Sequence record: OP079919.1
From: Klebsiella phage KPN8
Length of the DNA: 64,000 bases
Reading direction: 5' to 3' (one strand)
Shown: positions 6,532 through 57,775 of the stretch, in pieces
Layout of the letters: every line of letters starts with the position of its first letter
Position numbering within the stretch: the stretch's first letter is position 1
Notes under the pieces: generated by a model
What the model saw: only the letters and a program-made list of their open reading frames with translations
Told to the model about the DNA's origin: nothing
The model's database searches: none
Made by a program: the position numbers and the translations under genes

Positions 6532-6580
6532 AATACTCCTACCTTAGGGTAGGAGTATTTAACCCTATTATTTATTTTTT
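6532..6580 (+). terminator. rho-independent terminator
   Basis: AATACTCCTACC-TTAG-GGTAGGAGTATT followed by a T-rich run. Confidence 0.7.
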
Positions 6581-29961: not shown

Positions 29962-29972
29962 AACGCGTAATA

Positions 29973-30020
29973 ACTCCTACTCCCCGCATGGGGAGTAGGA
30001 GTTAACAGTACTTTTTTTTC
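29973..30020. terminator. bidirectional terminator
   Basis: AACTCCTACTCCCC-GCAT-GGGGAGTAGGAGTT, a 14-bp perfect stem, followed by T9. Confidence 0.8.
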
Positions 30021-36738: not shown

Positions 36739-38446
36739 TACCAGCACCACATCGACCACATCAAGTACGAGTGTTGCGGCGACGGGTCCTCAGTTACCTA
36801 ACTCGAATGATCTACTCACCCCACTCGATATTTCCAACCTTTACGATCCGGATACGGTAGCTGATTCTGATGCGTCAAAATACATCGTTGGTCGTGAAGG
36901 CCAAACGGTCATAGACGGATTGAACCAACGAGCTTACGTCATTACTCACGTTGGGACTGAAGATGCGAAATACAAATCAACGTTAAAACGGATAGGGTTT
37001 GTTACGGATAGCGACGACAACTCGAGTGACATCATTGGTTTACCGGGACGCTTTGCCGGCAATGGTGTTTTGGGAATCGACTACAGTGTCAGACCTCCTC
37101 GGGCTGTCATCGATGGTCGTGTATGGGCTCCTGATGCAGCCTACGGTTTGCTTTATAAAGGCGTGGTTATCGGTGATAGCGGTCAGGTCATTTCTGTTCA
37201 ATACGCAACTAATGGTGATTTGATTTCTAATCAGGTCCCGACTAAATTAGCTGCGGTTAACAACATGACCAACCACAGCATCTTCACCACTACTGCATTT
37301 TCGGTGACTCAAACGGCTGACGAACTCCCGGACGGAAGTTTGTGTACGCTGGTGTTCTTCGATGCTGCCGGTAACATGATTCCTGAACCTTATGAACTTG
37401 GCGTGATGCACACTGCGTTGCTGAGAGATCATCAGATCGGGATCAAGTATGTTTCGGCTATTGAACTGGTCTCTCCTTGGTTCACCGATACGACCGATCC
37501 TACTACGCTGAACATTCCTATCAACGTTGCGATGAGTTCGGTTCAATTCTCTGCGCGCATCCATTATAACGATGGGTCTACCAAAGAGCAATTGATTGAC
37601 GGGACCAAATGTGCGATCATCGGGCTCAATGAATATAAACCTACTACGGTGGGTCAGCGAGCTTCGATCGTACTTCGTTATTCGTTCGATGAGGACGAAC
37701 AGGCTTTAATTGCTACGCCTAATTATCCCGACATGATCACCCAGGCTTATCAGATCGTTTGTACTCAGGTTAACGGCGCCTACTCTCCAAAACTCTACAC
37801 TTATCCGGTGTGGAACGGAACAGGGTATTCGCTCAAACATTACCTGTACGATCTTACCCGTGGGTATGCGACTGACGTTACTCAGCATGTTACACTCAAC
37901 GACACGTCGCCAGCCTTCCAGCCGGCTAACTATGGCGTTCAGCAAGACATGGTGTTTAACCTGACGCTGTCAGACGTATCTTCGACGTTTAAAGCATGGA
38001 CGCTGGTACAACATACTTCTATTACGTTGTATAAAGCGAATACCGGCACGGGTCGTCGTTGGGCTATTCAGTACTCTTCTGCGAATAATCCTTACGTCGC
38101 TTATAACGTCGGGTATACCGAAGCCAATGGTGTTCAGTCCATTAACCTGGCTGGTTCCATCCTCACGATTTCTGATTGGTTGAATCGACTCTACTATCCG
38201 GTAGAACCATTGATCGATACCACGAAAGAATCGGCGGCTCTGGTTCCTAACTATATCCGGTTGGTTGACACTAACGGGGTTACTCACGACCTTGAAATCA
38301 ACGATTGGAATAAACCTCAAGCTCTCACTTCTCCTGTTGCAAGTGGCCAAACCCTCTTCCTGCAATGGATTCAGAAATCAGAGAACGGGGCCGAACTCCA
38401 ATTGGCGACCACGGGTGTTGTTGTAGACGTCGCTCCGAGCAATTAA
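36731..38446 (+). CDS. hypothetical structural protein (571 aa)
   Basis: Overlaps the previous stop by 8 nt; Thr/Ser-rich N-terminus; terminator at 38459-38488. Confidence 0.8.
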   Translation: MFDTSTTSTTSSTSVAATGPQLPNSNDLLTPLDISNLYDPDTVADSDASKYIVGREGQTVIDGLNQRAYVITHVGTEDAKYKSTLKRIGFVTDSDDNSSDIIGLPGRFAGNGVLGIDYSVRPPRAVIDGRVWAPDAAYGLLYKGVVIGDSGQVISVQYATNGDLISNQVPTKLAAVNNMTNHSIFTTTAFSVTQTADELPDGSLCTLVFFDAAGNMIPEPYELGVMHTALLRDHQIGIKYVSAIELVSPWFTDTTDPTTLNIPINVAMSSVQFSARIHYNDGSTKEQLIDGTKCAIIGLNEYKPTTVGQRASIVLRYSFDEDEQALIATPNYPDMITQAYQIVCTQVNGAYSPKLYTYPVWNGTGYSLKHYLYDLTRGYATDVTQHVTLNDTSPAFQPANYGVQQDMVFNLTLSDVSSTFKAWTLVQHTSITLYKANTGTGRRWAIQYSSANNPYVAYNVGYTEANGVQSINLAGSILTISDWLNRLYYPVEPLIDTTKESAALVPNYIRLVDTNGVTHDLEINDWNKPQALTSPVASGQTLFLQWIQKSENGAELQLATTGVVVDVAPSN

Positions 38447-38458
38447 GATTCGTTATCC

Positions 38459-38500
38459 TAACTACCGGTCTGAAAAGACCGGTAGTTATATTTTATATCG
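38459..38500 (+). terminator. rho-independent terminator
   Basis: TAACTACCGGTC-TGAAAA-GACCGGTAGTTA followed by TATTTTAT. Confidence 0.7.
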
Positions 38501-38529
38501 AGACCGAGACAAACCGACAGGATAAAACC

Positions 38530-41500
38530 ATGTTTGCAAGTAAAGACGAATTAGAACTACATCTTGCAAGAGAAAAACTTGCTATGATAGGAGCGACAGA
38601 AAGTCAGCTCCCCGAATACCTGCTCGATGACGACACAGAAGCGCTTCCCATCAGGACCCCAGAAGAATTGCTTCTAGCCCATTATCGAGAAGACACATTA
38701 AGTGCGATCAAAACGGTCAGGTTCTTAAAGGACTTCGAACGTTATAACGCTAAACCGGATCTGACGACGAAGAACATCTCTTTCTTAAAGGTTGCTGAAA
38801 TCTTTAGACTGATGGGGATAAAGAATTACTATTTCTGCCTCCAGCTCAACAATCCGTTGCTGATAGGGGTAGATCCTTACGACCCCAACCTGACAGATGA
38901 ACAAAAATTCATGATCCTCCAGGAGTGCCGTGAAAACTTCTGGTATTTCCTCCGTGAAGTACTTCATCTGAGCGGTGGTATTCAGTTCCAGGCAAACAGA
39001 GCAAACATCTGTTTCTTATGGTGTTATTTGTGCCACGTCAACACCATGCTTATCATTCCCCGCCAATTCGGGAAAAATTCTAGATTAGATTCTCTTGTAA
39101 AAATACCCAACGGTTGGAAGAAAATGGGGGATATGCGCAAGGGTGACGTAGTATCCACTCCTGATGGTAAAACGGCTAAAGTTACCGGGGTTTATCCTCA
39201 AGGTGTCACTCCTTTATATAAGGTTACTTTTAAAGATGGAAGAGAATCTTACGTCGGGTCTGATCATTATTGGACGGTATGGGATCCCGGTAAGGGTGAT
39301 GGCGGGGTCTGGCGAACACTGACCACACTCGAGTGCCAACAACGCATGACCGAGATGAAGAAAGCGCATAACTATCTTTCTGTTCCTTTGGTTCAGCCTG
39401 ATAATGATCCAGATAAGAAACTTGCCATTCATCCTTATGTTCTAGGTGTTTTACTAGGTGACGGATGCATCTCTAATAAAAGCGTTGTTGTAGCTAAACC
39501 AGATAAAGAGATGTTCGATAAGGTTACAGGGCTCATCCCTGAGTCACTAGAAACCTCATGGGTTGATGATAAGAGCTTTATCATCAGACGTAAGCCGACT
39601 AACATAACCCAGAACAATCAACTTAAAGATGATTTAACCAATCTCGATTTATTCGGATTGCGGTCCTGGGAGAAATTTGTTCCTACCGATTACTTAAATG
39701 GTTCTTATCGCCAGCGTTTAGAGTTGCTACAGGGTTTACTTGATACTGATGGACACGCAGGTACGGGTGGGAACATTGAGTATTGCACGACGTCTCCTAA
39801 ACTCGCTAAAGATTTCGTTTACCTTGCTCGTAGCATCGGGGCAATATGTTCTTGTAAAGAACGCCACACGTATTACACGCATAATGGCGAGAGACGCCAG
39901 GGGAGATTATCTTATCGCATTAGTGTTCGACACACACAGCCTTGGGAACTCTTCACGTTAAGTCGTAAACGAGATCGTTTAGTTGACAAAACACGAGGGT
40001 TAAAATTTAACAGCCGTTTAACCATGCGTTCCATTGAGTATGTGGGGGAAGAAGAGACTCAGTGCATTGAAGTGGACCATCCTGATCATCTTTACATCAT
40101 GGATGATTTCGTCGTCACTCACAACACTGTTTCTGCCCAGAGCATTATGTTCTGGCTAACTTACTTAACCGGGAAGTCTTACGAATCCCACTTAATCACC
40201 CTGAAAGACGATAACCGTAGTCAGTTCGTAGAGGCGTTAAAGGGTATCCGTAACAACATCCCGAGTTACTTAACCAACGTGGGGTGGCGAGATAAGGATA
40301 GCGGTAACTCATTAACCTATAGCGCGTTTGGGGATGATAAGAAAAACATCTTCCGTATTAGTGTACCTCAAATCGGTAGAGAGGCGGCTCGTAACGTCGG
40401 TCGTGGTTTGACTATCAAAACGCGTATGATTGACGAACCGGCATATATCAACTTCATGGAAGAGATACTTAACGGTGCGGGCCCTAGTACACTAACGGCT
40501 CGTGCTAACGCCAGAAGAATAGGTGAACCCTATGGGACGGGATTCATTACCACGCCTGCGAGTAAAACGACGGCAAGCGGCGAATACATGTACAACATGT
40601 TGATGGATGCGACCGAGTGGCGGGAAACGTTCTTCGACAGTTTTAACGAAAGTCATCTCTACCAACGTTTGATTAAAGCAAGTCCTGTGGAGGGAATCAC
40701 CAGTCCTACCGTAGGCATGGTTTTCAACTACTTGCAGCTGGGTAGGAATAAAGACTGGGTTAAGAAAACCATAGACGAGTTAAAACTCAGTTTAGCCGAA
40801 GCGAAGATCGACTTACTGTTAATGTGGGACGACGCCAGTAAAGGTAAACTTTTCGACGACTTAACTCGAGAAGCGTTAAACGAGGGTAAACGAGGAATAC
40901 TCTGGAGTCAGGAAGTAGGGAGTACGGGGTTGTTCATCGACTGGTTTATTACGCCAGAAGAACACACCCAAATCATTACTGGGAATAGTCAAACCTTTTA
41001 CGTAGTCGGTTGTGATACTTCCGCTGCGCAAAACCGAGACGCCTGTACTGTCGTGATAAGAGACGTCATGGACGGTAAAGTGATTGGGGTGGGTCGTTAT
41101 CCGATAGCCTACTTAATGGACGTGGGCGAGGTACTACAAACGATCCTGTTAGAGATTAAGAACAGCTTACTGATCATCGAGCGTAACTTCGCGCATCACA
41201 TGATCGACCAACTGCTCGTTAGTCTTCCTGCATTAGGCATCGATCCCTTTAAACGTATCTTTAATCAGATCGTACAGGATCCGGTTAAATACGAAAAAGA
41301 AATGATCGAGTTTAAACAACGTAATTTCGCTAACAGAGACAGTCACTTCTATCTGAGATTCAAACATTTGTTTGGGTTCGTTACCAACGCCAAAACGCGT
41401 GACGAAGTATATAGTTTTATCCAAGAAGCGGTAGGGACTACCGGAGATAAAATTTACTATACTAAACTCATCGACGAACTGGTCAACCTCAAAGAGAAAG

Positions 41501-41928
41501 GGGGAAGGATAGACCACGAAGCCAATAAACACGATGACCTGGTTATCGCTTGGTTGTTAGGATTCTGGTTCTTGAAACTGGGTAACAATAAAAGCGAATA
41601 CGGAATTCCTCCAGGTATTAGTTTGAGTAAAATCAGCTTGATGCGTGTTGGGGACGATAAAAATGAGGAAACCAACAGTGCGCACAATGAAGCGATGATC
41701 GCACTCTATCGTCGTAAAGTTGAAGAGCTGAGTGACAGACTCATTAAAACCACCGACAATACCGTAGCTCAAAGGATCGAGTACATGATTGACAAACTCA
41801 GCAGCATGATCCCTCAAGATAAGCGTAAGAGTTTGACCATCGATGAAATCGTTAGAAAGGCCAAGGAGGAAAGAAGTCGTCGAGTATTGGAAGCGCGTAA
41901 GTTACGCAGTCGTTACGCGTACATGTAA
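38530..41928 (+). CDS. terL: terminase large subunit interrupted by an intein
   Basis: Exteins carry the P-loop-like RQFGK|...|T (39061-39078), Walker B MIDEPAY (about 40425-40445) and the nuclease motif VVGCDTSAAQNRDACTVVIRD...HDDLVIAW. Start is taken at the ATG at 38530 after the terminator hairpin; the track ORF 38365 extends upstream through the hairpin. Confidence 0.75.
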   Translation: MFASKDELELHLAREKLAMIGATESQLPEYLLDDDTEALPIRTPEELLLAHYREDTLSAIKTVRFLKDFERYNAKPDLTTKNISFLKVAEIFRLMGIKNYYFCLQLNNPLLIGVDPYDPNLTDEQKFMILQECRENFWYFLREVLHLSGGIQFQANRANICFLWCYLCHVNTMLIIPRQFGKNSRLDSLVKIPNGWKKMGDMRKGDVVSTPDGKTAKVTGVYPQGVTPLYKVTFKDGRESYVGSDHYWTVWDPGKGDGGVWRTLTTLECQQRMTEMKKAHNYLSVPLVQPDNDPDKKLAIHPYVLGVLLGDGCISNKSVVVAKPDKEMFDKVTGLIPESLETSWVDDKSFIIRRKPTNITQNNQLKDDLTNLDLFGLRSWEKFVPTDYLNGSYRQRLELLQGLLDTDGHAGTGGNIEYCTTSPKLAKDFVYLARSIGAICSCKERHTYYTHNGERRQGRLSYRISVRHTQPWELFTLSRKRDRLVDKTRGLKFNSRLTMRSIEYVGEEETQCIEVDHPDHLYIMDDFVVTHNTVSAQSIMFWLTYLTGKSYESHLITLKDDNRSQFVEALKGIRNNIPSYLTNVGWRDKDSGNSLTYSAFGDDKKNIFRISVPQIGREAARNVGRGLTIKTRMIDEPAYINFMEEILNGAGPSTLTARANARRIGEPYGTGFITTPASKTTASGEYMYNMLMDATEWRETFFDSFNESHLYQRLIKASPVEGITSPTVGMVFNYLQLGRNKDWVKKTIDELKLSLAEAKIDLLLMWDDASKGKLFDDLTREALNEGKRGILWSQEVGSTGLFIDWFITPEEHTQIITGNSQTFYVVGCDTSAAQNRDACTVVIRDVMDGKVIGVGRYPIAYLMDVGEVLQTILLEIKNSLLIIERNFAHHMIDQLLVSLPALGIDPFKRIFNQIVQDPVKYEKEMIEFKQRNFANRDSHFYLRFKHLFGFVTNAKTRDEVYSFIQEAVGTTGDKIYYTKLIDELVNLKEKGGRIDHEANKHDDLVIAWLLGFWFLKLGNNKSEYGIPPGISLSKISLMRVGDDKNEETNSAHNEAMIALYRRKVEELSDRLIKTTDNTVAQRIEYMIDKLSSMIPQDKRKSLTIDEIVRKAKEERSRRVLEARKLRSRYAYM
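39079..40125 (+). mobile_element. intein with LAGLIDADG homing-endonuclease domain inside the terminase P-loop
   Basis: N-terminal block SRLDSLV (intein block A-like), two LAGLIDADG motifs (LGVLLGDGCI and LLQGLLDTDGH), C-terminal VVTHN followed by Thr (+1 extein). Length is 349 aa. Confidence 0.7.
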
Positions 41929-46182: not shown

Positions 46183-47673
46183 TTACTTGTACGCGTCTTT
46201 AGTCAGCGTTCGTAAAACGATATACAACATCAGACTCGTTCTTAATGAACTTACTGTAATTCGGGTTTTTATCCCCGTCAGTTGTCTGACAATGTCATCG
46301 CCTTCATCTCGCATCTTAAAGACACTTTGGTTTTGGCTACGGCTACTGAGATACGCACCCCGCATTCGACGTAAGACTTCTCTCAGGTCGTTAGCCCGAA
46401 TACCGTTTTCCGTTAAGTATTCGAACAGGTGGGTAGTAACTTCATCGACGAACTCTTTGTATTTAGTTCCCTTTGGCGAGTTATACTGATCGGGGAATAC
46501 CCGGATAATTCGCTCCAGTTTATCCCTGGGAGAGTTGTCAATGGCTTCCGCAGCGTAACCTACCAGCTCGTCCTTGTAAAATCCAGCAGAAGAACTGAGG
46601 ACATTTTGGATGTAGTTTTTATACTGAGTTACGTTCTTCGTCACCTCTCGTACGCTTACTCCGTCTTCCAGCGTGACCATCCCACCGTCCAATCTGACGA
46701 TATTGGTTTTCGATTTCACTTCATGGAAAACTTTGTTAATGTCGTTGATCACGCCTCTGAGTCGATCCTGGATATCACCGACCATGTAAATGATTTTCTT
46801 GTCATCATCCATGGTGGTAAACGTTTTATAATGGATCCCCGTTTTGGGATCTAAAATAAACTCAGCCCTGGCTCGGATTAACGCCATCCAACTACCGTAA
46901 CGTTTGATGTCATAACGCATGCTTAAACGGTTATAAGTTTCCATAGCGATCTCTTTCTTCGCCAGGTATTTATAATCGTTCGCCATAATACTCGTCAAAC
47001 ATTTGTAATGGTACATCGCTAAGATGTTAACCATCGCATTGTGTTTAACGCGGTCATGGAGATCGCTATGAAACGTCCGGTACAGCAGGTAAACGATGCT
47101 TAGGTTGAACACGTCACCGGTGACTTTCCAGGTCGCATTGATCAGTTTACAGGCGTGGAGGTTTTCTCGTAACTCTTCTTCGTCGACATCGAAGATTTCA
47201 GCGAACCAGCGGTTTCTGTCTTCTGATGTGAAAACGATTCGGTGGATACCTAAATAGGGATTACCAAAGAATTCCACGTACTGTTCGTTCTTGGTGGTAA
47301 ACCCAATGACGTACCGGGTCAGTCTATCGGCCCAACGGTTATCGATTTCTAAATCGTGTCCGAATGCGTTAAACACACCGAGTATCGCGTGATCGGTATT
47401 GAAATTGTAATTGGGTAGCAGAGCTTCAAAACCAGATATCCCAAATGTTTTTTGAAGGAGTTTCTCGATTCCCTTGTCGGGGGTAATCTCCTCGAACATT
47501 TTGACTTCGGGTTCGGTGTCGTACATCCCGTCTTCGACCAACATCGGATCTCCGCTTAAAATCCCGCTGGGATCAAATACCGGTAATCCAGAAAGCTTAT
47601 CGAACCATTGACGGTCGTCATTCTGAAAATAACTTTCAGAACCGTTGAGACGATCTGCGTATTGATTAAACAT
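46183..47673 (-). CDS. hypothetical protein (496 aa)
   Basis: Converges on the bidirectional terminator at 46133-46167. Confidence 0.8.
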   Translation of the reverse strand: MFNQYADRLNGSESYFQNDDRQWFDKLSGLPVFDPSGILSGDPMLVEDGMYDTEPEVKMFEEITPDKGIEKLLQKTFGISGFEALLPNYNFNTDHAILGVFNAFGHDLEIDNRWADRLTRYVIGFTTKNEQYVEFFGNPYLGIHRIVFTSEDRNRWFAEIFDVDEEELRENLHACKLINATWKVTGDVFNLSIVYLLYRTFHSDLHDRVKHNAMVNILAMYHYKCLTSIMANDYKYLAKKEIAMETYNRLSMRYDIKRYGSWMALIRARAEFILDPKTGIHYKTFTTMDDDKKIIYMVGDIQDRLRGVINDINKVFHEVKSKTNIVRLDGGMVTLEDGVSVREVTKNVTQYKNYIQNVLSSSAGFYKDELVGYAAEAIDNSPRDKLERIIRVFPDQYNSPKGTKYKEFVDEVTTHLFEYLTENGIRANDLREVLRRMRGAYLSSRSQNQSVFKMRDEGDDIVRQLTGIKTRITVSSLRTSLMLYIVLRTLTKDAYK

Positions 47674-47681
47674 ATCGTCTC

Positions 47682-48542
47682 CTAGATCCGACTTGGGACA
47701 GCGTTTCTGATGGCGTTGTATCTCCGATCCGGGTCAGAATACGTCATGAGTTTTATCCAGCGAGTTTTAAACAATTCCTCGTACTGGTTAAGACTATCAC
47801 GGTACTCACTGATATCGTCACGGATAATATCAACCTGGACCCCAGAGCGGGCTACTCCTTCGTCGACTTTGTACCGAACTGTTTTCCAGATGTAGTTCTT
47901 GGTCATCAGGATAACTAAGTCGCCAAATACGTCGTAGGCTCTCGGATGTATCGTAGATAACCCATCGTCATAACTCAGGATAAGTTTACCTGTCAGGGAG
48001 AATACCCCACTCGGCGCGCCATGGATCACAAACGAGTTATTCCCGACGAGAGTTATATTCGTGAACGTCTGGGGGATTTCTCGGTTGGGTAACATCCCGT
48101 TGATCATGGAGTTCAATGCATCGTTGACAGTACCTACCCCGCATGAGTCAGCATTGCCAAGTACGCTCATGATTCCACTGGAGGAATTCATCGCCCCCTG
48201 GTAAACTTCCACAACCGAAATAATTTTCCGACCGCCCGTCAAGAAATCAGGGACGTTAACCAGCTGCATCCCTTGGCCGAGATGTTCAATCCGAGATCCG
48301 GTTAAATCAATCAGCTCTGTCACCCCACCCTGGACGTTGCACCGGGGTAGGATGATCGCATGTATAATTTTTTCTCGAATGCCTTGCTGAACGGTGGTCT
48401 GCGCGTACTGGTTATACCAGTTCCCGGTCAGATTCCCGTTAGGGTTCGAGAACGCAAGCTCCAACAGGTACTCGGGGATATCACTCCCGTTGAGAACTTT
48501 GTTGATCGCGTAGTCCACGCAGTTCATAATCAACTCCCACAC
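47682..48542 (-). CDS. hypothetical protein (286 aa)
   Basis: First gene of a minus-strand pair reading out of the AT-rich region. Confidence 0.8.
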   Translation of the reverse strand: MWELIMNCVDYAINKVLNGSDIPEYLLELAFSNPNGNLTGNWYNQYAQTTVQQGIREKIIHAIILPRCNVQGGVTELIDLTGSRIEHLGQGMQLVNVPDFLTGGRKIISVVEVYQGAMNSSSGIMSVLGNADSCGVGTVNDALNSMINGMLPNREIPQTFTNITLVGNNSFVIHGAPSGVFSLTGKLILSYDDGLSTIHPRAYDVFGDLVILMTKNYIWKTVRYKVDEGVARSGVQVDIIRDDISEYRDSLNQYEELFKTRWIKLMTYSDPDRRYNAIRNAVPSRI

Positions 48543-49685
48543 TGAGTTTCGGGACTGGAGAAATTTCCGTCTCGATAAAAATTCAACTGAGAATTTTTAC
48601 TCTGGGGTTTTCGGCGGTTATAATATTTCACTGCGGGAATTTAAAAACTCAACGGGTTTACGATCCCGTATGTTTTTGAGTTTTATTTCCCGTATAAAAT
48701 ACTCCGTGCCGTAAGACAACACCCCACAGAAAAAACCTCGCCTTCGGAAAAATTCCTCGAAGGCGAGTTGCCATGATCTCACTCGAGCAAGAATCAATCC
48801 GACATACAATCCCAAACGGTCCGAAATTTTTTCTTCGGAATTTTGGTCATTGGTAAATTTTTACATACAAATCTATTTTATATTTGTATTTTTCGCGTGC
48901 GCGGATATTCCAAATTTTCAAAGATAATCTAAAACCGATTCCAATTCTGGGTTTTTATTTTTCTGTGTTTTGATTTTCCAAATCCAATTTTCAAAAATCT
49001 AAATCTAAAAAATCTAAAAAATTTAATACTCAAAAATCAATTTTTCCTAGGGGTCCTTATTACGCGTGCGTACGCCCGCACGCGTATAAAAAACAAATAT
49101 AATACTACGTATTATATTTTCCTTTGGTTTTATATTTTTAATTTATTAAAAATATATTAATATAAATTATTATATTTTTTATTAGTTTGTTTTTATAAAA
49201 AATATATAAATATATATTTATATATATTTATATTCATTAGGCGCGCGCCAGCGTGCGTGTGTGTACGTGCGCGCACGCGTAATAGAGAAGGGATGATAAA
49301 AATACAGGATTTAATCTGAGAAATTATCCAGAAAAAATCACACAGAGTAAAAAAATATTAACCGGAACGATTTTGAGAAGATTTAATACCCAACCTAGGA
49401 ATTCGTATCAGTCGGATGAAAAAGGGTTTTAGAAATCGATACAGGAAGTTTTAGAGGGTATTCCGATCGAGTTCTCAGGAAAGAATTATTCAGATTAAAA
49501 TATTTTAATCAGGGTAATTAATTTTTACAGTGAATTAAATTTATCGAGACGAGAAGATTTAATCGCAAAGTAATATCTTACGGAGAGTATAATCTTCTGA
49601 ACAGGACCGAGATCTCGAATAGCCAGATGGAAATTATCCATCCGTTCGAAAGTTAACCTGAAATATCCCTAAGAGGCCAAATCCT
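48543..49685. repeat. 1.1-kb AT-rich non-coding region with GC palindromes, iteron-like repeats and repeated 11-mers (candidate origin or regulatory hub)
   Basis: No ORF of 60 aa or more. Contains CGCGTGCGCG at 48895, the inverted repeat TACGCGTGCG-TACGCC-CGCACGCGTA at 49051-49076, the alternating purine/pyrimidine tract GGCGCGCGCC...CGTGCGTGTGTGTACGTGCGCGCACGCGT at 49230-49270, and a ~95% AT core at 49085-49229. AAATCTAAA and TTTTC(C)AAA direct repeats at 48900-49050. GAAATTATCCA twice (49310, 49620), GAAGATTTAAT twice (49367, 49543) and ATACAGGA twice (49292, 49429). Confidence 0.6.
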
Positions 49686-50420
49686 ATGCAACCAGCTAAC
49701 CCATGGAAAAACAACAAACACGTTAAATCACAAGATAACACCACCGCAGACCGGTACGAATCTCTTCTGCGTGAATTACCTGATGCGCTCAATGCGACTC
49801 CCAGAGACCCAGGTTACTTGATCGCTACCAAAAAGATTTTATTAGTACTGGAAATTCTCGAAGGAACTCGATTGTCAGTTCGTGACGTGATGGAAAACGA
49901 GAACCTGATTCGTAAAGTTCACGAGTTACTGGTGGAGTTGGGTTGGAAGCAAGCGATTAGCCGAGGGACTCAGGTTTTTGTTACTCACCAGGATTTAATT
50001 AAACCGGGTGTTTACCGATTGATTGATCTCGATGAAACCGCGATGGGTTACACCAAAGAGATCATGGATCATATTTTATTAGACCGTCGGTTCAGTGTTC
50101 GGGTGGACGGTAACGATATCCGGATTCTTCCTGGAGACCGTAGTGCGAGTAATCCGTTTAGTCTGCTGTCTGCTAACGTAGTAAGTAGCTGGCGTAAGGC
50201 GATACGGGAATACGATAAAACTGTTACCAGTAATCTTATTGGACATCTGACGGTTATCGGCGAAGATACGATGAGTTGCCCGCTCGATTTAAAACTCATC
50301 TTCGCCCTGCTGGATTACCTCGGCTGGCCGGAAATGTATTTAACCGGCGAACAGATCTTATTGAGTAACCCCATGGGTGATTATCAAACCCTCGAGGTGA
50401 ATTTTATCGATCCTGAGTAA
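49686..50420 (+). CDS. hypothetical protein (244 aa)
   Basis: First plus-strand gene after the AT-rich region; GAGG leader. Confidence 0.8.
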   Translation: MQPANPWKNNKHVKSQDNTTADRYESLLRELPDALNATPRDPGYLIATKKILLVLEILEGTRLSVRDVMENENLIRKVHELLVELGWKQAISRGTQVFVTHQDLIKPGVYRLIDLDETAMGYTKEIMDHILLDRRFSVRVDGNDIRILPGDRSASNPFSLLSANVVSSWRKAIREYDKTVTSNLIGHLTVIGEDTMSCPLDLKLIFALLDYLGWPEMYLTGEQILLSNPMGDYQTLEVNFIDPE

Positions 50421-50670
50421 TTCTCAACTACAGTCCGATGTTATTAGTAAAGATCTTTGGACTCCCTGTTGATTAACTAGCGACCCAACCTCATCTCTTT
50501 GAACCTCCTTACCACGAGCGAGATAACCAAAGTAGCTAGGGATTTTCAGGGGGTTCAATCCCCATTTTCGTTAATCTTATTAGACCCACTGTCCTAAGCC
50601 CATGAAGCCTTGAAATCTCTCCTGTAGCAGACAAAGTTTTCGTTCGGTGGGATAGATTAACGTTTTTATT

Positions 50671-50755
50671 CACGTCGTATTATCTGATGAGTCTTCGACG
50701 CTAAACAAGACGAAACCTAATGAATCTATTTTATTAGGTCATAATTCAACCTAAG
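50671..50755 (+). ncRNA. candidate type I hammerhead self-cleaving ribozyme
   Basis: UAUUAU-CUGAUGA(50684-90)-GUCUU(50691-95)-11 nt loop-AAGAC(50707-11)-GAAA(50712-15)-CCUAAU(50716-21)-11 nt loop-AUUAGG(50733-38)-U-C^AUAAU(50741-45). All invariant core positions are present, including the G10.1-C11.1, A15.1-U16.1 and C15.2-G16.2 pairs and the GUC cleavage triplet. Stem I is AUAAU pairing with AUUAU. Confidence 0.55.
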
Positions 50756-51400
50756 CGTTGAACGGGCAGTTAGGGGCAATGGTCCCCGAGGTCTTCAGCT
50801 TCTTCGCCTGCCCGCACTAAAAAGTTCTTTCATGATTAGGCGTGCCGCGCTCTACGAGCGGACAACAAGCAACCGAAAGTGGGAGAGAAAGAAGCGTGTC
50901 CGGTCGCTTGCCGGAAAGTTGGTTCAGGCGGGTTTCTTCCCAACCCAAACGACGCTGCCCAAGATAGGGCTGCAAGTCGTATTAGCGTATTATACCGGTA
51001 TGCGGGGTTTCTGCGATAAACCGGGTTAGCTACGGGTAAGAAACCGGCCGGAGTAATCAGCCTTTCGTATTCGGGTAACGTGAGTTATCGTAGAGATATC
51101 TCTGAGGGTTAGGCCAACCCCCGACGTTCTTCGAGTACGAAGGGAAGCTTGCTCAGCTTCGTAGAAACTCCAAAATCTCAGACGGTCACACCTCGCAATC
51201 TTACGGCAGTATGATTGCCTATTCGTCCTTTGTCGCTCACCAAGGGGCGAGTAGGAAACCTCTGCCACGGCGTTTCGATTGTTTGCCTTTGCCATAACCC
51301 TCCTGTATAGGTTGAGTGTTAACTTCCCCAAGAGTATAACCTGTTATCTCTCTCTTCGTGAGGAGTCGGAGATAATGGGATAAATTCTTAGGAGTTCGTT
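50741..51400 (+). ncRNA. GC-rich ORF-free structured region (candidate large ncRNA or long structured leader), unclassified
   Basis: About 52-55% GC against roughly 44% around it; many local hairpins (GGGCAG...CUGCCC, GGGGCAAUGGUCCCC, CGCUCUACGAGCG); only short, Arg-rich ORFs that look spurious. It lies between the predicted hammerhead cleavage site and the 62-aa ORF and terminator. Confidence 0.3.
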
Positions 51401-51589
51401 ATGTACACATACCAGTATACCGTGCGATACCGAATACCTAATTCTGTGTTTACGACTTACAGCGGAGAAATTACTTCTGACTGTTTGCTCAATAACGCTA
51501 ATCGCATTTTTGATGTCTTGCGTACTGAAGTTCTTAAAGCTGTTAACGTTAACTCGTTTAGCATTACGAACTTTAAGCTGAAAGAATAA
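51401..51589 (+). CDS. small hypothetical protein (62 aa)
   Basis: Strong TTAGGAGTTCGTT-ATG ribosome-binding context; terminator about 170 nt downstream. Confidence 0.5.
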   Translation: MYTYQYTVRYRIPNSVFTTYSGEITSDCLLNNANRIFDVLRTEVLKAVNVNSFSITNFKLKE

Positions 51590-51759
51590 GTCGAGCTACG
51601 CGCTCAACCTACCTTAGGGCCGGAAGTAGTTACGACTTAGGGGGAAAGAAGAGTCGTGCCTTTGAGTACCCCAACCCCATTCGTGTGGTGATCTTCCACA
51701 TCATCCCATGGATAATGCTGCATCATCATCATTAAAGTTCTACCATGAATTTTATTCCT

Positions 51760-51792
51760 TCCAGTAGGGTTCGTCCCTACTGGACTTTTTTC
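51760..51792 (+). terminator. rho-independent terminator closing the ncRNA/small-ORF transcription unit
   Basis: TCCAGTAGGG-TTCGT-CCCTACTGGA followed by CTTTTTTCG. Confidence 0.75.
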
Positions 51793-51922
51793 GCGTTTTA
51801 TTTATCGGCACATATAAGGTTATAGAGGAACTAGATTTTTTGAGTTCTAAATTATGGTAATGTAAAGCAAAAGATAATGCTTTCCATTCCAACTATCATA
51901 ATTTCTTTTAGGAGTTTCATCT

Positions 51923-52885
51923 ATGAGCACATTACGTGTTTACGCGTGCGGCGGTACCGGTATTAATATTGCGTCTAAATGGATTGCCACCGGTGCGAAT
52001 ACGCTTATTCGTAAAGCCCAGTTCATTGGACTGGATAGCAGTGAAAACAACAAACCGTATAACGACGCCTTTAAGGTCGAACGTCCTGAAGGAACTCGTG
52101 GCGGTGGCAAAGAACGTAAGCTGATCGGTAAAATCGCTGCTGGGTTTATTGACAGTATTTTGACCAAACATAAACCGGGCGATTTCAACCTGATCATCAT
52201 GAACGCGGCTGGCGCTACCGGGAGTACGTTCGGCCCGACTCTGATCAACCGTCTCCTCACCCAGGGCGTTCCGGTCATTGCGTTGGTCGTAGGTGACCTG
52301 ACTTCTGAACTGGAAAACTACAACACGGTTAAAACGTTTGAAAGCCTGGACAACCAGCGCATCAATCTGAACGTGCCGGTTATCATCGACTACGTGGACA
52401 ACGCCAAATATCCCAGCCGTGGATTGGCCGACAAATATGCCATCGGCCGTCTTGATATCCTGAGCCTGTTCTTAACCGACGAACACGAAGAAAGCGATTT
52501 CCAAGACATCCGGAACCTGTTCTATTACAACCAGGTTACCAAGGCGGCGCCTACTCTTGCTCGTATCGACTTCTTGACCGATACTCAGTTAGACAACGTT
52601 ACTCCGGGGCTGGTTGCTGAATTTGGTTTGTATCGTAAAGCGGACGATATCGGTAGCCATATTAAAAATCTGGCATACCGTTCGACCGGCGTTATTCAGG
52701 AAGGTAGCACTAACTTCCCGGCTGGAATAGAACATCTCCACATGGTCTTTGACCACGATGCGACGATTAAAGATATCTTGGTTCTGGTCCAGGATCTTAA
52801 AGATATTGAGATCCAAAATAACGAACGTTTTAAATCCGCTCAGCAGGTTGGAAACGGCGGCGATGATTCTGGAATGTCCTACTAA
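51923..52885 (+). CDS. phuZ: PhuZ-like phage tubulin (TubZ/FtsZ superfamily GTPase)
   Basis: VYACGGTGINIA (G-box), GTRGGGKERK and NAAGATGSTFGP (tubulin signature-like); its 320-aa length matches PhuZ. Confidence 0.8.
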   Translation: MSTLRVYACGGTGINIASKWIATGANTLIRKAQFIGLDSSENNKPYNDAFKVERPEGTRGGGKERKLIGKIAAGFIDSILTKHKPGDFNLIIMNAAGATGSTFGPTLINRLLTQGVPVIALVVGDLTSELENYNTVKTFESLDNQRINLNVPVIIDYVDNAKYPSRGLADKYAIGRLDILSLFLTDEHEESDFQDIRNLFYYNQVTKAAPTLARIDFLTDTQLDNVTPGLVAEFGLYRKADDIGSHIKNLAYRSTGVIQEGSTNFPAGIEHLHMVFDHDATIKDILVLVQDLKDIEIQNNERFKSAQQVGNGGDDSGMSY

Positions 52886-55630: not shown

Positions 55631-55690
55631 GCCGTTCCTTTTTATTAGACGAAAACAATTTTAAATTTTAAAGTGAAACGGAGCTTAAAG

Positions 55691-57775
55691 ATGACTGAGA
55701 CTTTTTTAAGTCCGTTTGTTGATGACGATTACAGTGCCGATAGGAATATCGTTAAACACTATCATGAACAAATGGCTTTGTATCTTGGTAAAAAGCGCAA
55801 TGAAGATCCTAAAGCTATTTACGAAGTACTTTCTAAACACATCCAGCCCAATCAAAACGGCTATAAAGATCGTCGTATGCAGGTTTTAGTAAAAAACAAG
55901 TACGGCGATAGAGAAGTTAAAGTCATGACGGCATCTAATTTCTTTAATGAAGTTAGACGTCAGAACTGTCATCTCAGTCCCAGTATGGTTGCTTACAAGA
56001 ACACTGAAGAAGAGCAATCCGTTAATGCAATCGGGACAGAAAAATTTCTTAGCCTTCGGTCCCACTATAAAGGGTTAAAACAAAAGGCCAGTGACGAAGG
56101 TGATGAATGGGGTAAGAAGGCTTTCCACGAAATTCAAAACGCCTTGAAAATATTCAACAACGCCCAATCAGGCGCAATGTCATCCCGTGGGACTCCTCTT
56201 GTTAATAAGTCAGGTCATACTGCTCTGACTAGTGCTTGCCGTGCTTTGACCAGTACCGCTAACATGTGTAATGAAAAGTTATTGGTCGGTAACCGATTCT
56301 TTAACTCGTACGAGCGAACGATGGAGAACTTACTGTCGTTGCTCTCAGTTACTGACATTAAGCGAATGGACGAAGTCATCAAGAAACTGAAGATGAACTA
56401 CGCGACCATAGACCAGGTTATGGAAATGGTCAAACGTTGTTCTCGTCGGTATTGGAGAGACGTTAAACAACTCGGCTACATTAAAGAGTTTTTGGAGCAA
56501 CTTCGTCCGGTTGAATTAACGGCTTTGCTTTGCAATATGGATATCGAGGGATTGAGGGTTACGAATAAAGAAATCCTTTATAAATTCTTTGATGACTTCT
56601 CTCATATACCGGAAGTTCCAGAAGGCGCTAAGGCTGAAGATTATACTCCGCCTGATAACGGAGACCGATACACGCTTTGTGTGTCTAAACTCTTAGCGAA
56701 ACCAAGCAAAGTTCAGTTAAACTTTTTAAACCAGTATCATCTGGAAATGGAACATAAGTGGAAAGACTTTATTGAAGTCTTCTTTAAATGCTCCATTCCT
56801 CCATCGGGCATTTATGAAATCAGGGATATGATCCGAGAGGTAGTTCAAACCTCAGATACCGATTCCTCGATTTACACCGTAGATAAAGTCGTAGAGGATT
56901 ACACCGACGAAAAAGGACAATCGTTGAGATTGAATGGGGTTCTTACTTACTTCATTCGAATGATAGCGGTTCATCAGCACGCTCAGTTAAGTGAAAACAT
57001 GAACGTTGCTAAACGCTACCGTAATCGTCTGACGATGAAGAACGAGTACTTGTTTGGAGGATATGTTACAACATTAATGTCAAAACACTATTTTGCCACA
57101 CAGCTGATGGTAGAAGGGGTATTGAATAAAAATGTTGAAATGGAAATTAAGGGTGTTCACTTAAGGAGTTCTAAAGTAGCTCATGAGATAAAGGATTTTG
57201 CACACAAACTCATGAGGGAGATATTGGATTGTATCTATGACAAACGTCAGATGGATGCAGCCGATATTCTCTTTAGAGCAGCAGAGTTAGAAAGGGCCAT
57301 CATTAAGGATATCAACGAAGGCCAATGGGGTTGGCTAACACGCAACACGATAAAGAGTGACGACGTGTACACATTGCCGGATCAATCAGTGTATCAATAC
57401 CACTTACTCTGGGAGGAAGTGTTCTCCCCTAAATACGGACACGCTCCACCACCACCCTATTCTGCTATGAAAGTTAACCTTGATTTAGGTAATAAAGGTA
57501 AGGTCGAAGAGTTTTGTAAGAATCTGGAAGATAGAGAACTTGCAAATCGTTTATTAGATTTCTTCGTTAAGAAAGAGAAAAAAGAAATCAGTACGTTCTT
57601 TGTTCCTGCTGACGTATTACCAAGATTAGGCAAGTTACCCGATGAAGTTATTAAAGCCGCGGATATCCGACAGATCATTAAACAGAACTTAAAATCCGTT
57701 TATGCTGTGTTGGAAGCCTGTGGGCTGTATATTGTTAACGATAAAATAACGCGTTTAATTAGTGACGAACACTAA
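55691..57775 (+). CDS. putative family B DNA polymerase palm/thumb fragment (divergent or split)
   Basis: SDTDSSIYTV (56852-56881) resembles Pol B motif C (YGDTDSIYV), AKRYRNR about 48 aa downstream resembles the KKRY motif, and NSYE is a possible motif B remnant. No exonuclease motifs or motif A found. The ATG at 55691 with a GGAG leader is preferred over the GTG at 55673. Confidence 0.4.
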   Translation: MTETFLSPFVDDDYSADRNIVKHYHEQMALYLGKKRNEDPKAIYEVLSKHIQPNQNGYKDRRMQVLVKNKYGDREVKVMTASNFFNEVRRQNCHLSPSMVAYKNTEEEQSVNAIGTEKFLSLRSHYKGLKQKASDEGDEWGKKAFHEIQNALKIFNNAQSGAMSSRGTPLVNKSGHTALTSACRALTSTANMCNEKLLVGNRFFNSYERTMENLLSLLSVTDIKRMDEVIKKLKMNYATIDQVMEMVKRCSRRYWRDVKQLGYIKEFLEQLRPVELTALLCNMDIEGLRVTNKEILYKFFDDFSHIPEVPEGAKAEDYTPPDNGDRYTLCVSKLLAKPSKVQLNFLNQYHLEMEHKWKDFIEVFFKCSIPPSGIYEIRDMIREVVQTSDTDSSIYTVDKVVEDYTDEKGQSLRLNGVLTYFIRMIAVHQHAQLSENMNVAKRYRNRLTMKNEYLFGGYVTTLMSKHYFATQLMVEGVLNKNVEMEIKGVHLRSSKVAHEIKDFAHKLMREILDCIYDKRQMDAADILFRAAELERAIIKDINEGQWGWLTRNTIKSDDVYTLPDQSVYQYHLLWEEVFSPKYGHAPPPPYSAMKVNLDLGNKGKVEEFCKNLEDRELANRLLDFFVKKEKKEISTFFVPADVLPRLGKLPDEVIKAADIRQIIKQNLKSVYAVLEACGLYIVNDKITRLISDEH

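Follow-up and report, generated by a model that had tools for sequence, protein, structure and literature searches.

A single-copy, dyad-symmetric intergenic element in a large subclade of phiKZ-related jumbo phages: a candidate replication origin or DNA-unwinding element

How do phiKZ-related jumbo phages, the builders of the phage nucleus, start to copy their DNA? No description of an origin for these phages was found in the searchable literature. The question is raised here by one locus in a 64,000-nucleotide stretch of Klebsiella phage KPN8 (sequence record OP079919.1; the whole stretch is called the window below), namely an element of approximately 240 bp in which an extremely A+T-rich core is enclosed by G+C-rich palindromic tracts. 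A preliminary description of the window, made from its letters alone, had read this layout as a replication origin or DNA-unwinding element, or else as an array to which a DNA-binding protein of the phage attaches. The locus holds a cis-acting, dyad-symmetric element, present in single copy and common to a large subclade of phiKZ-related jumbo phages, of which no earlier description was found either, and it offers a concrete, cross-genus candidate for the site at which copying begins. A bidirectional replication origin or DNA-unwinding element is the most likely of the functions weighed in this study, a tentative assignment from sequence comparison that falls somewhat short of an even chance.

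The element lies in a divergent intergenic region of approximately 1.15 kb (48528/48543-49685), which is bounded in the list of open reading frames (ORFs) on the left by the minus-strand gene for a gp42-like protein, which ends at 48542, and on the right by a plus-strand ORF with its start at 49686; the ORF-free 1.1-kb region noticed earlier is confirmed. From left to right, it comprises a left box and hairpin (49054-49086), the AT core (49087-49239), a GC tract (49240-49281), and a right box (49272-49292). The right arm is the conserved box CGCACGCGTAATAGAGAAGGG, i.e., CGCACGCG-T-AATAGAGAAGGG, on the plus strand (49272-49292). The left arm (49054-49070), read outward on the minus strand, is CGCACGCGTAATAAGGA, i.e., CGCACGCG-TAATA-AGGA, which is the conserved box minus GAGA; an arm profile matched it at 49075-49053 (nhmmer, E = 0.004) and the right arm with E = 3e-6. 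The conserved box of approximately 21 bp (CGCACGCG-TAATAGAGAAGGG) is present in two outward-facing copies, with which the proposed array for a DNA-binding protein would be compatible, and the arms hold a perfect 12-bp terminal inverted repeat (ATTACGCGTGCG at 49059-49070 and CGCACGCGTAAT at 49272-49283). An inversion of the element relative to its flanking genes in Miami-like phages was considered and dropped, since one box accounts for both arms, each copy facing outward.

The left GC clamp is a perfect 10-bp inverted repeat (TACGCGTGCG/CGCACGCGTA) with a 6-nt spacer, which carries a G+C-rich octamer on both strands; it is found at 49061-49086, 10 nt to the right of the position first given (49051-49076). 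The AT core (49087-49239) spans 153 bp with 93% A+T, instead of the estimate of about 95% made earlier, and is a mosaic of at least five AT-only perfect palindromes revealed by inverted-repeat enumeration, e.g., at 49095-49119, 49131-49156, 49171-49206, and 49202-49233. The palindrome GGCGCGCGCC (49240-49249), invariant in five aligned Miami-like sequences, stands at the core boundary, and after a break it is followed by the right GC clamp (49251-49281), a 31-nt perfectly alternating, Z-DNA-prone purine/pyrimidine run with the nested palindrome CGTGCGCGCACG. This run is 68% G+C and has the make-up of a Z-DNA tract (at least 12 bp of alternation, rich in CG and CA/TG). The right GC tract had thus been seen correctly but placed at 49230-49270 instead of 49240-49281, and the perfect alternation over about 40 nt that was ascribed to it does not hold. 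An outlying third GC box, CGCGTGCGCG, is located on the plus strand at 48894-48903 (not at 48895, as first reported), where it matches the octamer exactly in the orientation of the left arm; the arm profile matches it weakly on the minus strand (E = 0.64). Folded as a single strand, 49055-49295 pairs the left with the right flank (z = -6.6), and such pairing is found in the folds of three lineages in all (z = -6.6, -4.0, and -6.5). It is the box sequence that is kept, instead of compensatory changes between the arms, which argues for recognition of the boxes as duplex DNA. An RNA hairpin or non-coding RNA produced from the right GC tract was also considered and discarded, as neither a conserved fold nor conserved downstream sequence was found.

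Is this layout more than chance would produce? The octamer occurs six times in the 64 kb, where one copy is expected and none of 100 shuffles reached six, and four of the six copies lie within 386 bp; ACGCGT is not enriched (18 observed vs 13.3 expected). Whole-genome comparisons were made with the complete genome of the close relative BUCTxx100 (252,190 bp; the 252-kb relative genome). No other 140-bp segment of the relative genome matches the core in A+T content (93.6%, with the runner-up at 75.7%), and the least stable 100 bp fall there too (z = 7.2, with the next at 3.6), i.e., the lowest duplex stability in the replicon, as is expected of an origin or unwinding element, is found in the core. 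Directly adjoining this least stable stretch is the most stable 30-bp segment of the 64 kb (at 49243). No alternating purine/pyrimidine run, in the window or in the relative genome, exceeds the one of 31 nt; next in length comes, at 15 nt, the hairpin arm of this locus. Perfect hairpins of at least 10 bp are common in this genome, where they serve as terminators, and the 10-bp left hairpin is ordinary by itself. A box profile made from twelve arms of eight lineages gave two matches over the 252 kb, both at this locus and on opposite strands (E = 4e-6 and 0.004); as Miami-like arms were included in the profile, the informative part of this result is that there are no other copies. Beyond the two arms, it reached two much weaker local half-sites, one of which is CGCGTGCGCG at 48894. 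Both the right box CGCACGCGTAATAGAGAAGGG and its part AATAGAGAAGGG are single-copy in the window and in the relative genome.

The 10 kb surrounding the element share 92.5-93.6% identity with Klebsiella jumbo phage Miami, YC1, phiKp_32, Raoultella phage ZK_P1, and 'Stenotrophomonas' phage BUCTxx100. In the five Miami-like genomes the element is retained, and indels occur solely in the TA repeats and the right purine/pyrimidine tract (2-8 nt in the latter); these genomes are too alike overall for conservation among them to be informative. The left-clamp hairpin has a G>A mismatch in four of five relatives and is perfect in phiKp_32, and the third GC box is partly changed in BUCTxx100 and ZK_P1. 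A pattern scan for CGCGNAATAGAGAAGG was performed in IMG/VR, and a stricter pattern was used in metagenomes. Homologous elements are present in four further uncultivated lineages, designated L025/L040/L058, L046/L048/L056, L043, and L055, whose gp42-like proteins are 51-52% (L025, L046) or 24-25% (L043, L055) identical to that of the window. In IMG/VR, a search with a single flanking protein yielded nothing, and an alignment-based search brought up relatives of at most 55% identity only. With the L055 element as blastn query, the element of Salmonella phage SPN3US was found, and the search from SPN3US reached the Erwinia phages Asesino, phiEaH2, Stratton, Wellington, and Kwan. The SPN3US record starts 60 nt left of the element, in a non-coding gap of approximately 1.7 kb between gp002 and the gene for an HslV-like peptidase, and when its first 300 nt were compared with other genera by blastn, the match was the element only (query 62-260 at 81%, or 58-251 at 72%). 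At the SPN3US record junction (L059:250-1185 and L060:3484-4014), approximately 1.5 kb of G+C-rich DNA contains no annotated gene besides the element and is followed by tRNA genes.

Conserved across these lineages are the box, the GC-rich, locally palindromic, alternating purine/pyrimidine clamps, and the extreme A+T content of the core; the sequence of the core and its length (about 70-157 bp) differ between lineages. The string GCACGCG-N-AATAGAGAAGGG is invariant in the window, L025, L046/L056, L043, and L055, with variants in SPN3US, Asesino, and Wellington, and the box stands on both sides in L025, L046, and L055. Purine/pyrimidine tracts accompany one or both flanks in L043, L055, SPN3US, and Wellington. 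At all eight loci compared, which come from other lineages, the most AT-rich 80 bp (75-97% A+T) fall within the element, even where the locus has 50-52% G+C. Several GATC sites occur at the core borders of the enterobacterial versions (SPN3US, Asesino, Wellington, L055). In phage EL and lineage L032, the syntenic position is taken by an AT core (82% A+T in EL, measured over 100 bp) between two GC hairpins, all unrelated in sequence to the parts described above.

What could such a site do? Its single copy, its dyad symmetry, a core selected for composition and not for sequence, the GC clamps, the conserved box, and the position in a gap near replication genes together point to a duplex site that is opened by a sequence-specific protein. 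From the anatomy, uniqueness, stability extremes, and cross-genus conservation of the element, we infer protein binding, melting in vivo, and initiation of replication at this site. The two boxes would be recognized in double-stranded form by a phage protein, after which superhelical stress or local transcription would open the AT core. The bubble would be kept from spreading by the GC clamps, which might take up stress by forming cruciforms or Z-DNA, and helicase and polymerase would be loaded in both directions. Inverted boxes flanking an A+T-rich centre, the hallmark of palindromic origins, are found in several lineages.

Several points weigh against an origin. GC skew, GC skew at third codon positions (GC3 skew), DnaA boxes, and iterons all gave no positive sign of replication initiation at the locus. 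The inversion of cumulative GC skew that had been proposed as a check was not seen in the window or the relative genome, where the skew follows gene orientation and rises monotonically with the plus-strand genes, and the GC3 skew of plus-strand genes has no step at the locus; both tests are weak, because approximately 85% of the genes share one strand and because T4-like, recombination-driven replication would erase skew. There is no initiator-like gene next to the element, the neighbours being a virion protein gene and either an ORF of 244 aa without a family match or an HslV-like peptidase gene. Minus-strand terminators between the element and the gp42-like gene suggest, as far as predicted signals go, that transcripts leave the element, and its two-sided architecture fits a packaging site too. 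In phiKZ, the gp42/gp43 gap has no AT core and the PhuZ/gp42 junction has no element; Goslar and RAY lack it at the homologous junction, where PhuZ lies only 65-90 bp from the gp42-like gene. No element was found at the homologous junction of Aphrodite1 and Joad either. If the element is an origin, then origins of this type are not universal in the family, or are located elsewhere in phiKZ, Goslar, and RAY. Taken as a whole, the origin-like layout described earlier is borne out in its anatomy, its stability extreme, and its conservation, but is not accompanied by a skew switch, DnaA-box enrichment, or conserved iterons. Of the two signs that the preliminary description had named as speaking against it, one, the absence of a skew signal, was observed, and the other, a lack of conservation in related phages, was not, conservation there being strong.

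DnaA boxes (TTATCCACA-like, with at most one mismatch) number 14 in 64 kb vs 15.4 expected, one of them in the gap at 49324. The iteron-like repeats noticed earlier do exist, i.e., short A-rich direct repeats AAATCTAAA at 48995-49026 (a 9-bp unit in 2.9 copies, Tandem Repeats Finder) and three to four near-repeats of TTTTC(C)AAA from 48906 onward, but they are weak, and neither amounts to the three or more direct repeats of approximately 17-22 bp that iteron origins have. Their number is modestly above first-order Markov expectation (34 of 2000 simulations reach the observed count) and close relatives differ in how many copies they have. Other lineages with the element lack these repeats, which were not found outside the Miami clade and are probably not part of the conserved element. 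For transcriptional signals, Rfam gave only two sub-threshold, chance-level matches in 47500-52000, none of them at the element, and no tRNA or tmRNA was found; a small RNA that has been reported as conserved among giant phages belongs to a different locus, upstream of the gp182 homologue. A terminator scan found no intrinsic terminator at 49054-49292, where TATAAAAAAC (plus strand) and TAATAAGG (minus strand) come after the hairpin 49061-49086, and a scan for the sigma-70 consensus found nothing at the element itself. A recurrent promoter motif that would match the boxes was sought through k-mers, intergenic enrichment, and the motifs CTATATTA, GATTTAAT, and AAACCTA; none explains the boxes, and the main motif obtained was a terminator family, TACTCCTAC...GTAGGAGTA.

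The setting of the element is that of a phiKZ-related jumbo phage, to which the window is assigned because it encodes the tubulin PhuZ (51923-52885), a divergent family-B DNA polymerase (55673-57775), a gp42-like DUF7484 protein, and an ORF at the position of the terminase gene of phage EL. The DUF7484 gene, a virion gene homologous to phiKZ gp42, lies on the minus strand at 47682-48542. The ORF at the terminase position is large (1187 aa, 38365-41928, plus strand), with a LAGLIDADG-like domain at residues 450-504 (E = 2.6e-7) and a ...VVTHNT motif, which suggest an intein with a putative homing endonuclease within the terminase gene. In Miami-like, L025/L046-type, and EL-type genomes, the gene order runs from the PhuZ side through the element to the gp42-like and gp43-like genes, with the terminase beyond; the neighbour on the PhuZ side is an HslV-like peptidase gene or the 244-aa ORF, and the DNA polymerase is further out in the window and EL. 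In L043, L055, and SPN3US, a gp42- or gp43-like gene stands no further than about 1-3 kb from the element. The distance from the box to the nearest start codons is about 400-500 nt on either side. The 244-aa ORF at the right edge of the gap (49686-50420, plus strand) has no family match and is clade-specific, being found in six Miami-like records only. Compared with most relatives, it has 76-88% nucleotide and 83% amino-acid identity, vs 96-100% for the gp42-like gene on the left, so that the element is placed at a sharp divergence boundary between a conserved left gene and a diverged right ORF. Few gene-free gaps of the relative genome are larger than this one, which is also poorer in G+C (0.29, BUCTxx100) than every other large gap. 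This gap holds no annotated gene in BUCTxx100, ZK_P1, and phiKp_32, one 41-aa ORF in YC1, and four ORFs of 34-52 aa in Miami; these small ORFs are probably spurious. Those of Miami, one of which lies inside the AT core, were rejected as genes, given that the length changes of the core are not multiples of three and that other annotators mostly omit them. Further to the right, a sub-threshold match to a type III hammerhead ribozyme (50669-50721, plus strand; 24.2 bits vs a gathering score of 48.5, E = 0.07) is most likely due to chance.

Other features of the gap concern its flanks. Two tandem terminator-like hairpins are present on the minus strand at 48706-48770, between the element and the gp42-like gene, i.e., a 10-bp stem at 48737-48767 that is followed by GTTTTTTCTG on the minus strand, and a second site at 48722-48706 given by the terminator scan. 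Approximately 90 nt upstream of the gp42-like gene, the late-promoter-like motif AAATATTATAACC (48616-48628, minus strand) has comparable motifs, AAATGCTATAGACC and AAATGCTATGAAC, at the same position in L025, L046, L028, and L023, which suggests that this gene has a predicted promoter of its own, separate from the element. The left part of the gap is very highly conserved (48596-48680 and 48706-48770) and includes a sigma-70-like TTTACT-17-TATAAT and a bidirectional hairpin (48652-48669); a short transcript or leader may be encoded there. The right part contains two exact direct repeats, namely GAGAAGATTTAAT at 49375-49387 and 49551-49563 (176 bp apart) and GAAATTATCCA at 49320-49330 and 49630-49640 (310 bp apart), which are largely kept in relatives, with one change in a few copies, and are not genome-wide motifs. 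The dominant intergenic motif of the relative genome consists of long perfect hairpins, (T)ACTCCTAC(TCCC)...GGGAGTAGGAGT(A), followed by T runs, of which 29971-30004 and 6532-6559 are examples in the window; these are presumably the standard terminators of the phage.

A further property of the core is that sequence records tend to break in it. Breaks within the core are seen in at least seven independent GenBank records (phiKp_32, EC001, JN03, Lh1B, SPFM2, SPFM16, and Proteus phage 7); EC001, JN03, Lh1B, and SPFM16 end within it, and SPFM2 and Proteus phage 7 start within it. For about a dozen more SPFM records, whose alignments are fragmented, the element is no more than about 4 kb away from a record end. 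The phiKp_32 record stops 13 nt beyond the hairpin and restarts with an Illumina P7 adapter fused directly to GGCGCGCGCC. Positions 1-72 of this record (LC768500.1) are Illumina P7/TruSeq index adapter (CAAGCAGAAGACGGCATACGAGAT...GTGACTGGAGTTCAGACGTGTGCTCTTCCGATCT) joined to phage DNA, i.e., the deposited 'complete genome' is contaminated and incomplete here, lacking about 140 bp of AT core; its library was reported to be made with an enzymatic-fragmentation kit and assembled with Shovill. The simplest reading of the breaks is a coverage drop-out of a 93-96% A+T stretch between GC hairpins, and assembly breakage is an in-vitro sign of the unusual character of this DNA. In most records from these phage groups, the sequence runs through the element without a break, and the ends lie elsewhere. 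Contig ends of metagenome assemblies seemed over-represented around the locus, but this was not counted as evidence and was traced to two assemblies of one phage (226,773 and 226,777 bp) that had merely been opened differently. That the AT core is a programmed physical discontinuity, i.e., a site of cutting, nicking, or resolution like a pac end or the resolution of a telomere-like palindrome, is improbable. Were it so, phages that are assumed to be randomly permuted headful packagers would own a specific processing site, and the records that stop in the core would reflect biology and not sequencing bias. A protelomerase site resembling telRL was considered on account of the CGCGCG-centred palindromes and discarded, since no supporting feature was seen.

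The breaks bear on a packaging function, in which box-bound proteins would direct a cut by terminase or another nuclease in the core or at its edge, from which headful packaging would start, as at a pac site. Such a function, which is unlikely, would account for the uniqueness of the element, for two recognition regions around a central region by analogy with P1 and SPP1 pac, and for GATC sites at the core borders of enterobacterial versions, which are reminiscent of P1 pac. It would also fit with the large terminase gene about 5-7 kb away in the window and EL and about 3.5 kb away in SPN3US, and with the records that end in the core, including the phiKp_32 adapter ligated exactly at the GC-block boundary. 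The drop-out of the A+T-rich stretch suffices to explain these ends, however, most records of the same groups are continuous through the element, Miami-like elements lack a GATC cluster, and a directional site needs no perfect dyad symmetry; two Aeromonas giant phages, whose kinship to this clade is not established, have no obvious termini according to PhageTerm. The searchable literature gave nothing relevant on termini of these phages. Transcriptional control of the divergent clusters, a possible though doubtful role, would make the boxes operators or outward promoters for a dedicated factor and the AT core a bent, UP-like, or insulator element, possibly yielding short leader or non-coding RNAs. 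The location between divergent transcription units is what this role requires, and in L025 and L046 the box on the PhuZ side is followed, after 6-8 nt, by ATTTCAAACCTACAT, which resembles a promoter of the EL type; the tandem terminators between the element and the promoter-like motif of the gp42-like gene, as well as the local repeats GAGAAGATTTAAT and GAAATTATCCA to the right of the element, point the same way. Promoters of the phiKZ type have been described as multi-copy motifs with leaders of 31-40 nt. The promoters of these phages are multi-copy and near genes, but the box occurs nowhere else in 252 kb, and it is not a motif that recurs approximately 30-40 nt upstream of genes. GC-rich palindromes are moreover unlike the AT-rich early or TATG late promoters of phiKZ type, nothing downstream of the boxes is conserved between lineages, no Rfam family matches, and control of transcription leaves unexplained why the composition of the core is conserved and not its sequence.

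Two further explanations have even less in their favour. It is very unlikely that the element is a functionless, structure-prone palindrome, i.e., a relic of a mobile inverted repeat or a recombination hot spot kept by chance or hitch-hiking. Terminal inverted repeats around an AT-rich core, microsatellite-like length changes in the purine/pyrimidine tract and TA repeats, and the sharp climb in divergence just right of the element (76-88% in the 244-aa ORF vs 96-100% on the left) would be in keeping with a relic. A relic would hardly be present in one copy per genome in a similar gene neighbourhood across genera, with boxes conserved far above their surroundings, a core kept A+T-rich against backgrounds of 50-52% G+C, and no visible target-site duplication. 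It would come as a real surprise if the element were a centromere-like or anchoring site tied to the neighbouring PhuZ, analogous to tubC beside tubRZ. In TubZ systems, the centromere is placed beside the operon, and PhuZ is 0.1-2.6 kb from the element in Miami-like, EL-type, and L025/L046-type genomes. A TubR-like adaptor is neither known nor seen, the filaments of PhuZ do their work outside the phage nucleus, direct repeats are weak here, and in Goslar and RAY PhuZ abuts the gp42-like gene with no element in between. The remaining probability is that of functions beyond those listed here.

An origin or unwinding element at this locus would be open to direct test, as the element is present in the genetically tractable Salmonella phage SPN3US. 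Should it turn out to be a packaging or regulatory site instead, it would still be the most strongly conserved non-coding sequence in these comparisons. In practice, short-read assemblies of these phages repeatedly break at the core.

Among known systems, miniature inverted-repeat transposable elements and other palindromic repeats share the terminal inverted repeats, the AT-rich core, and the overall size of about 150-250 bp, whereas the present element is single-copy, keeps a similar neighbourhood across genera, and shows no target-site duplication, unlike a member of that class. In the pac sites of P1 and SPP1, two recognition regions flank a central processing region. The element resembles them in being a unique site with two flanking regions, GATC in some versions, and a terminase gene not far away; it differs in that no small terminase gene is adjacent, symmetry is no feature of pac, and Miami-like versions have no GATC cluster. 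The bacterial oriC and the origins of lambda and iteron plasmids likewise place an AT-rich unwinding element beside repeats, and GATC clusters are found in the enterobacterial versions of the element. It has, in contrast, no enrichment of DnaA boxes and no iterons of 17-22 bp, and its boxes are inverted and flanking instead of one-sided direct repeats. The origins oriF (uvsY) and oriG (34) of T4 and the primary origin of T7 combine a promoter with a downstream AT-rich unwinding element and are primed by an R-loop. Here, too, a virulent phage with its own transcription apparatus has an intergenic AT-rich candidate unwinding element near predicted promoters, and the phage probably also relies on recombination-dependent replication later in infection; those origins are asymmetric and have no flanking GC palindromes, and the box here, unlike a promoter, is not a recurring phage motif. 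The layout that comes closest is that of the origins oriL and oriS of herpes simplex virus (HSV), which are palindromic, with an A+T centre and inverted boxes for origin binding between divergent genes, and oriL lies between UL29 and the UL30 polymerase gene. There is no sequence kinship with them, the AT centre measures 70-157 bp here vs about 18 bp in HSV, the flanks of the element are alternating purine/pyrimidine GC tracts, and no UL9-like origin-binding helicase was identified. The likeness to the HSV origins would lie in the dyad symmetry, the A+T-rich centre, the inverted boxes, and the divergent genes near replication genes, and both are notoriously unstable or hard to clone or sequence.

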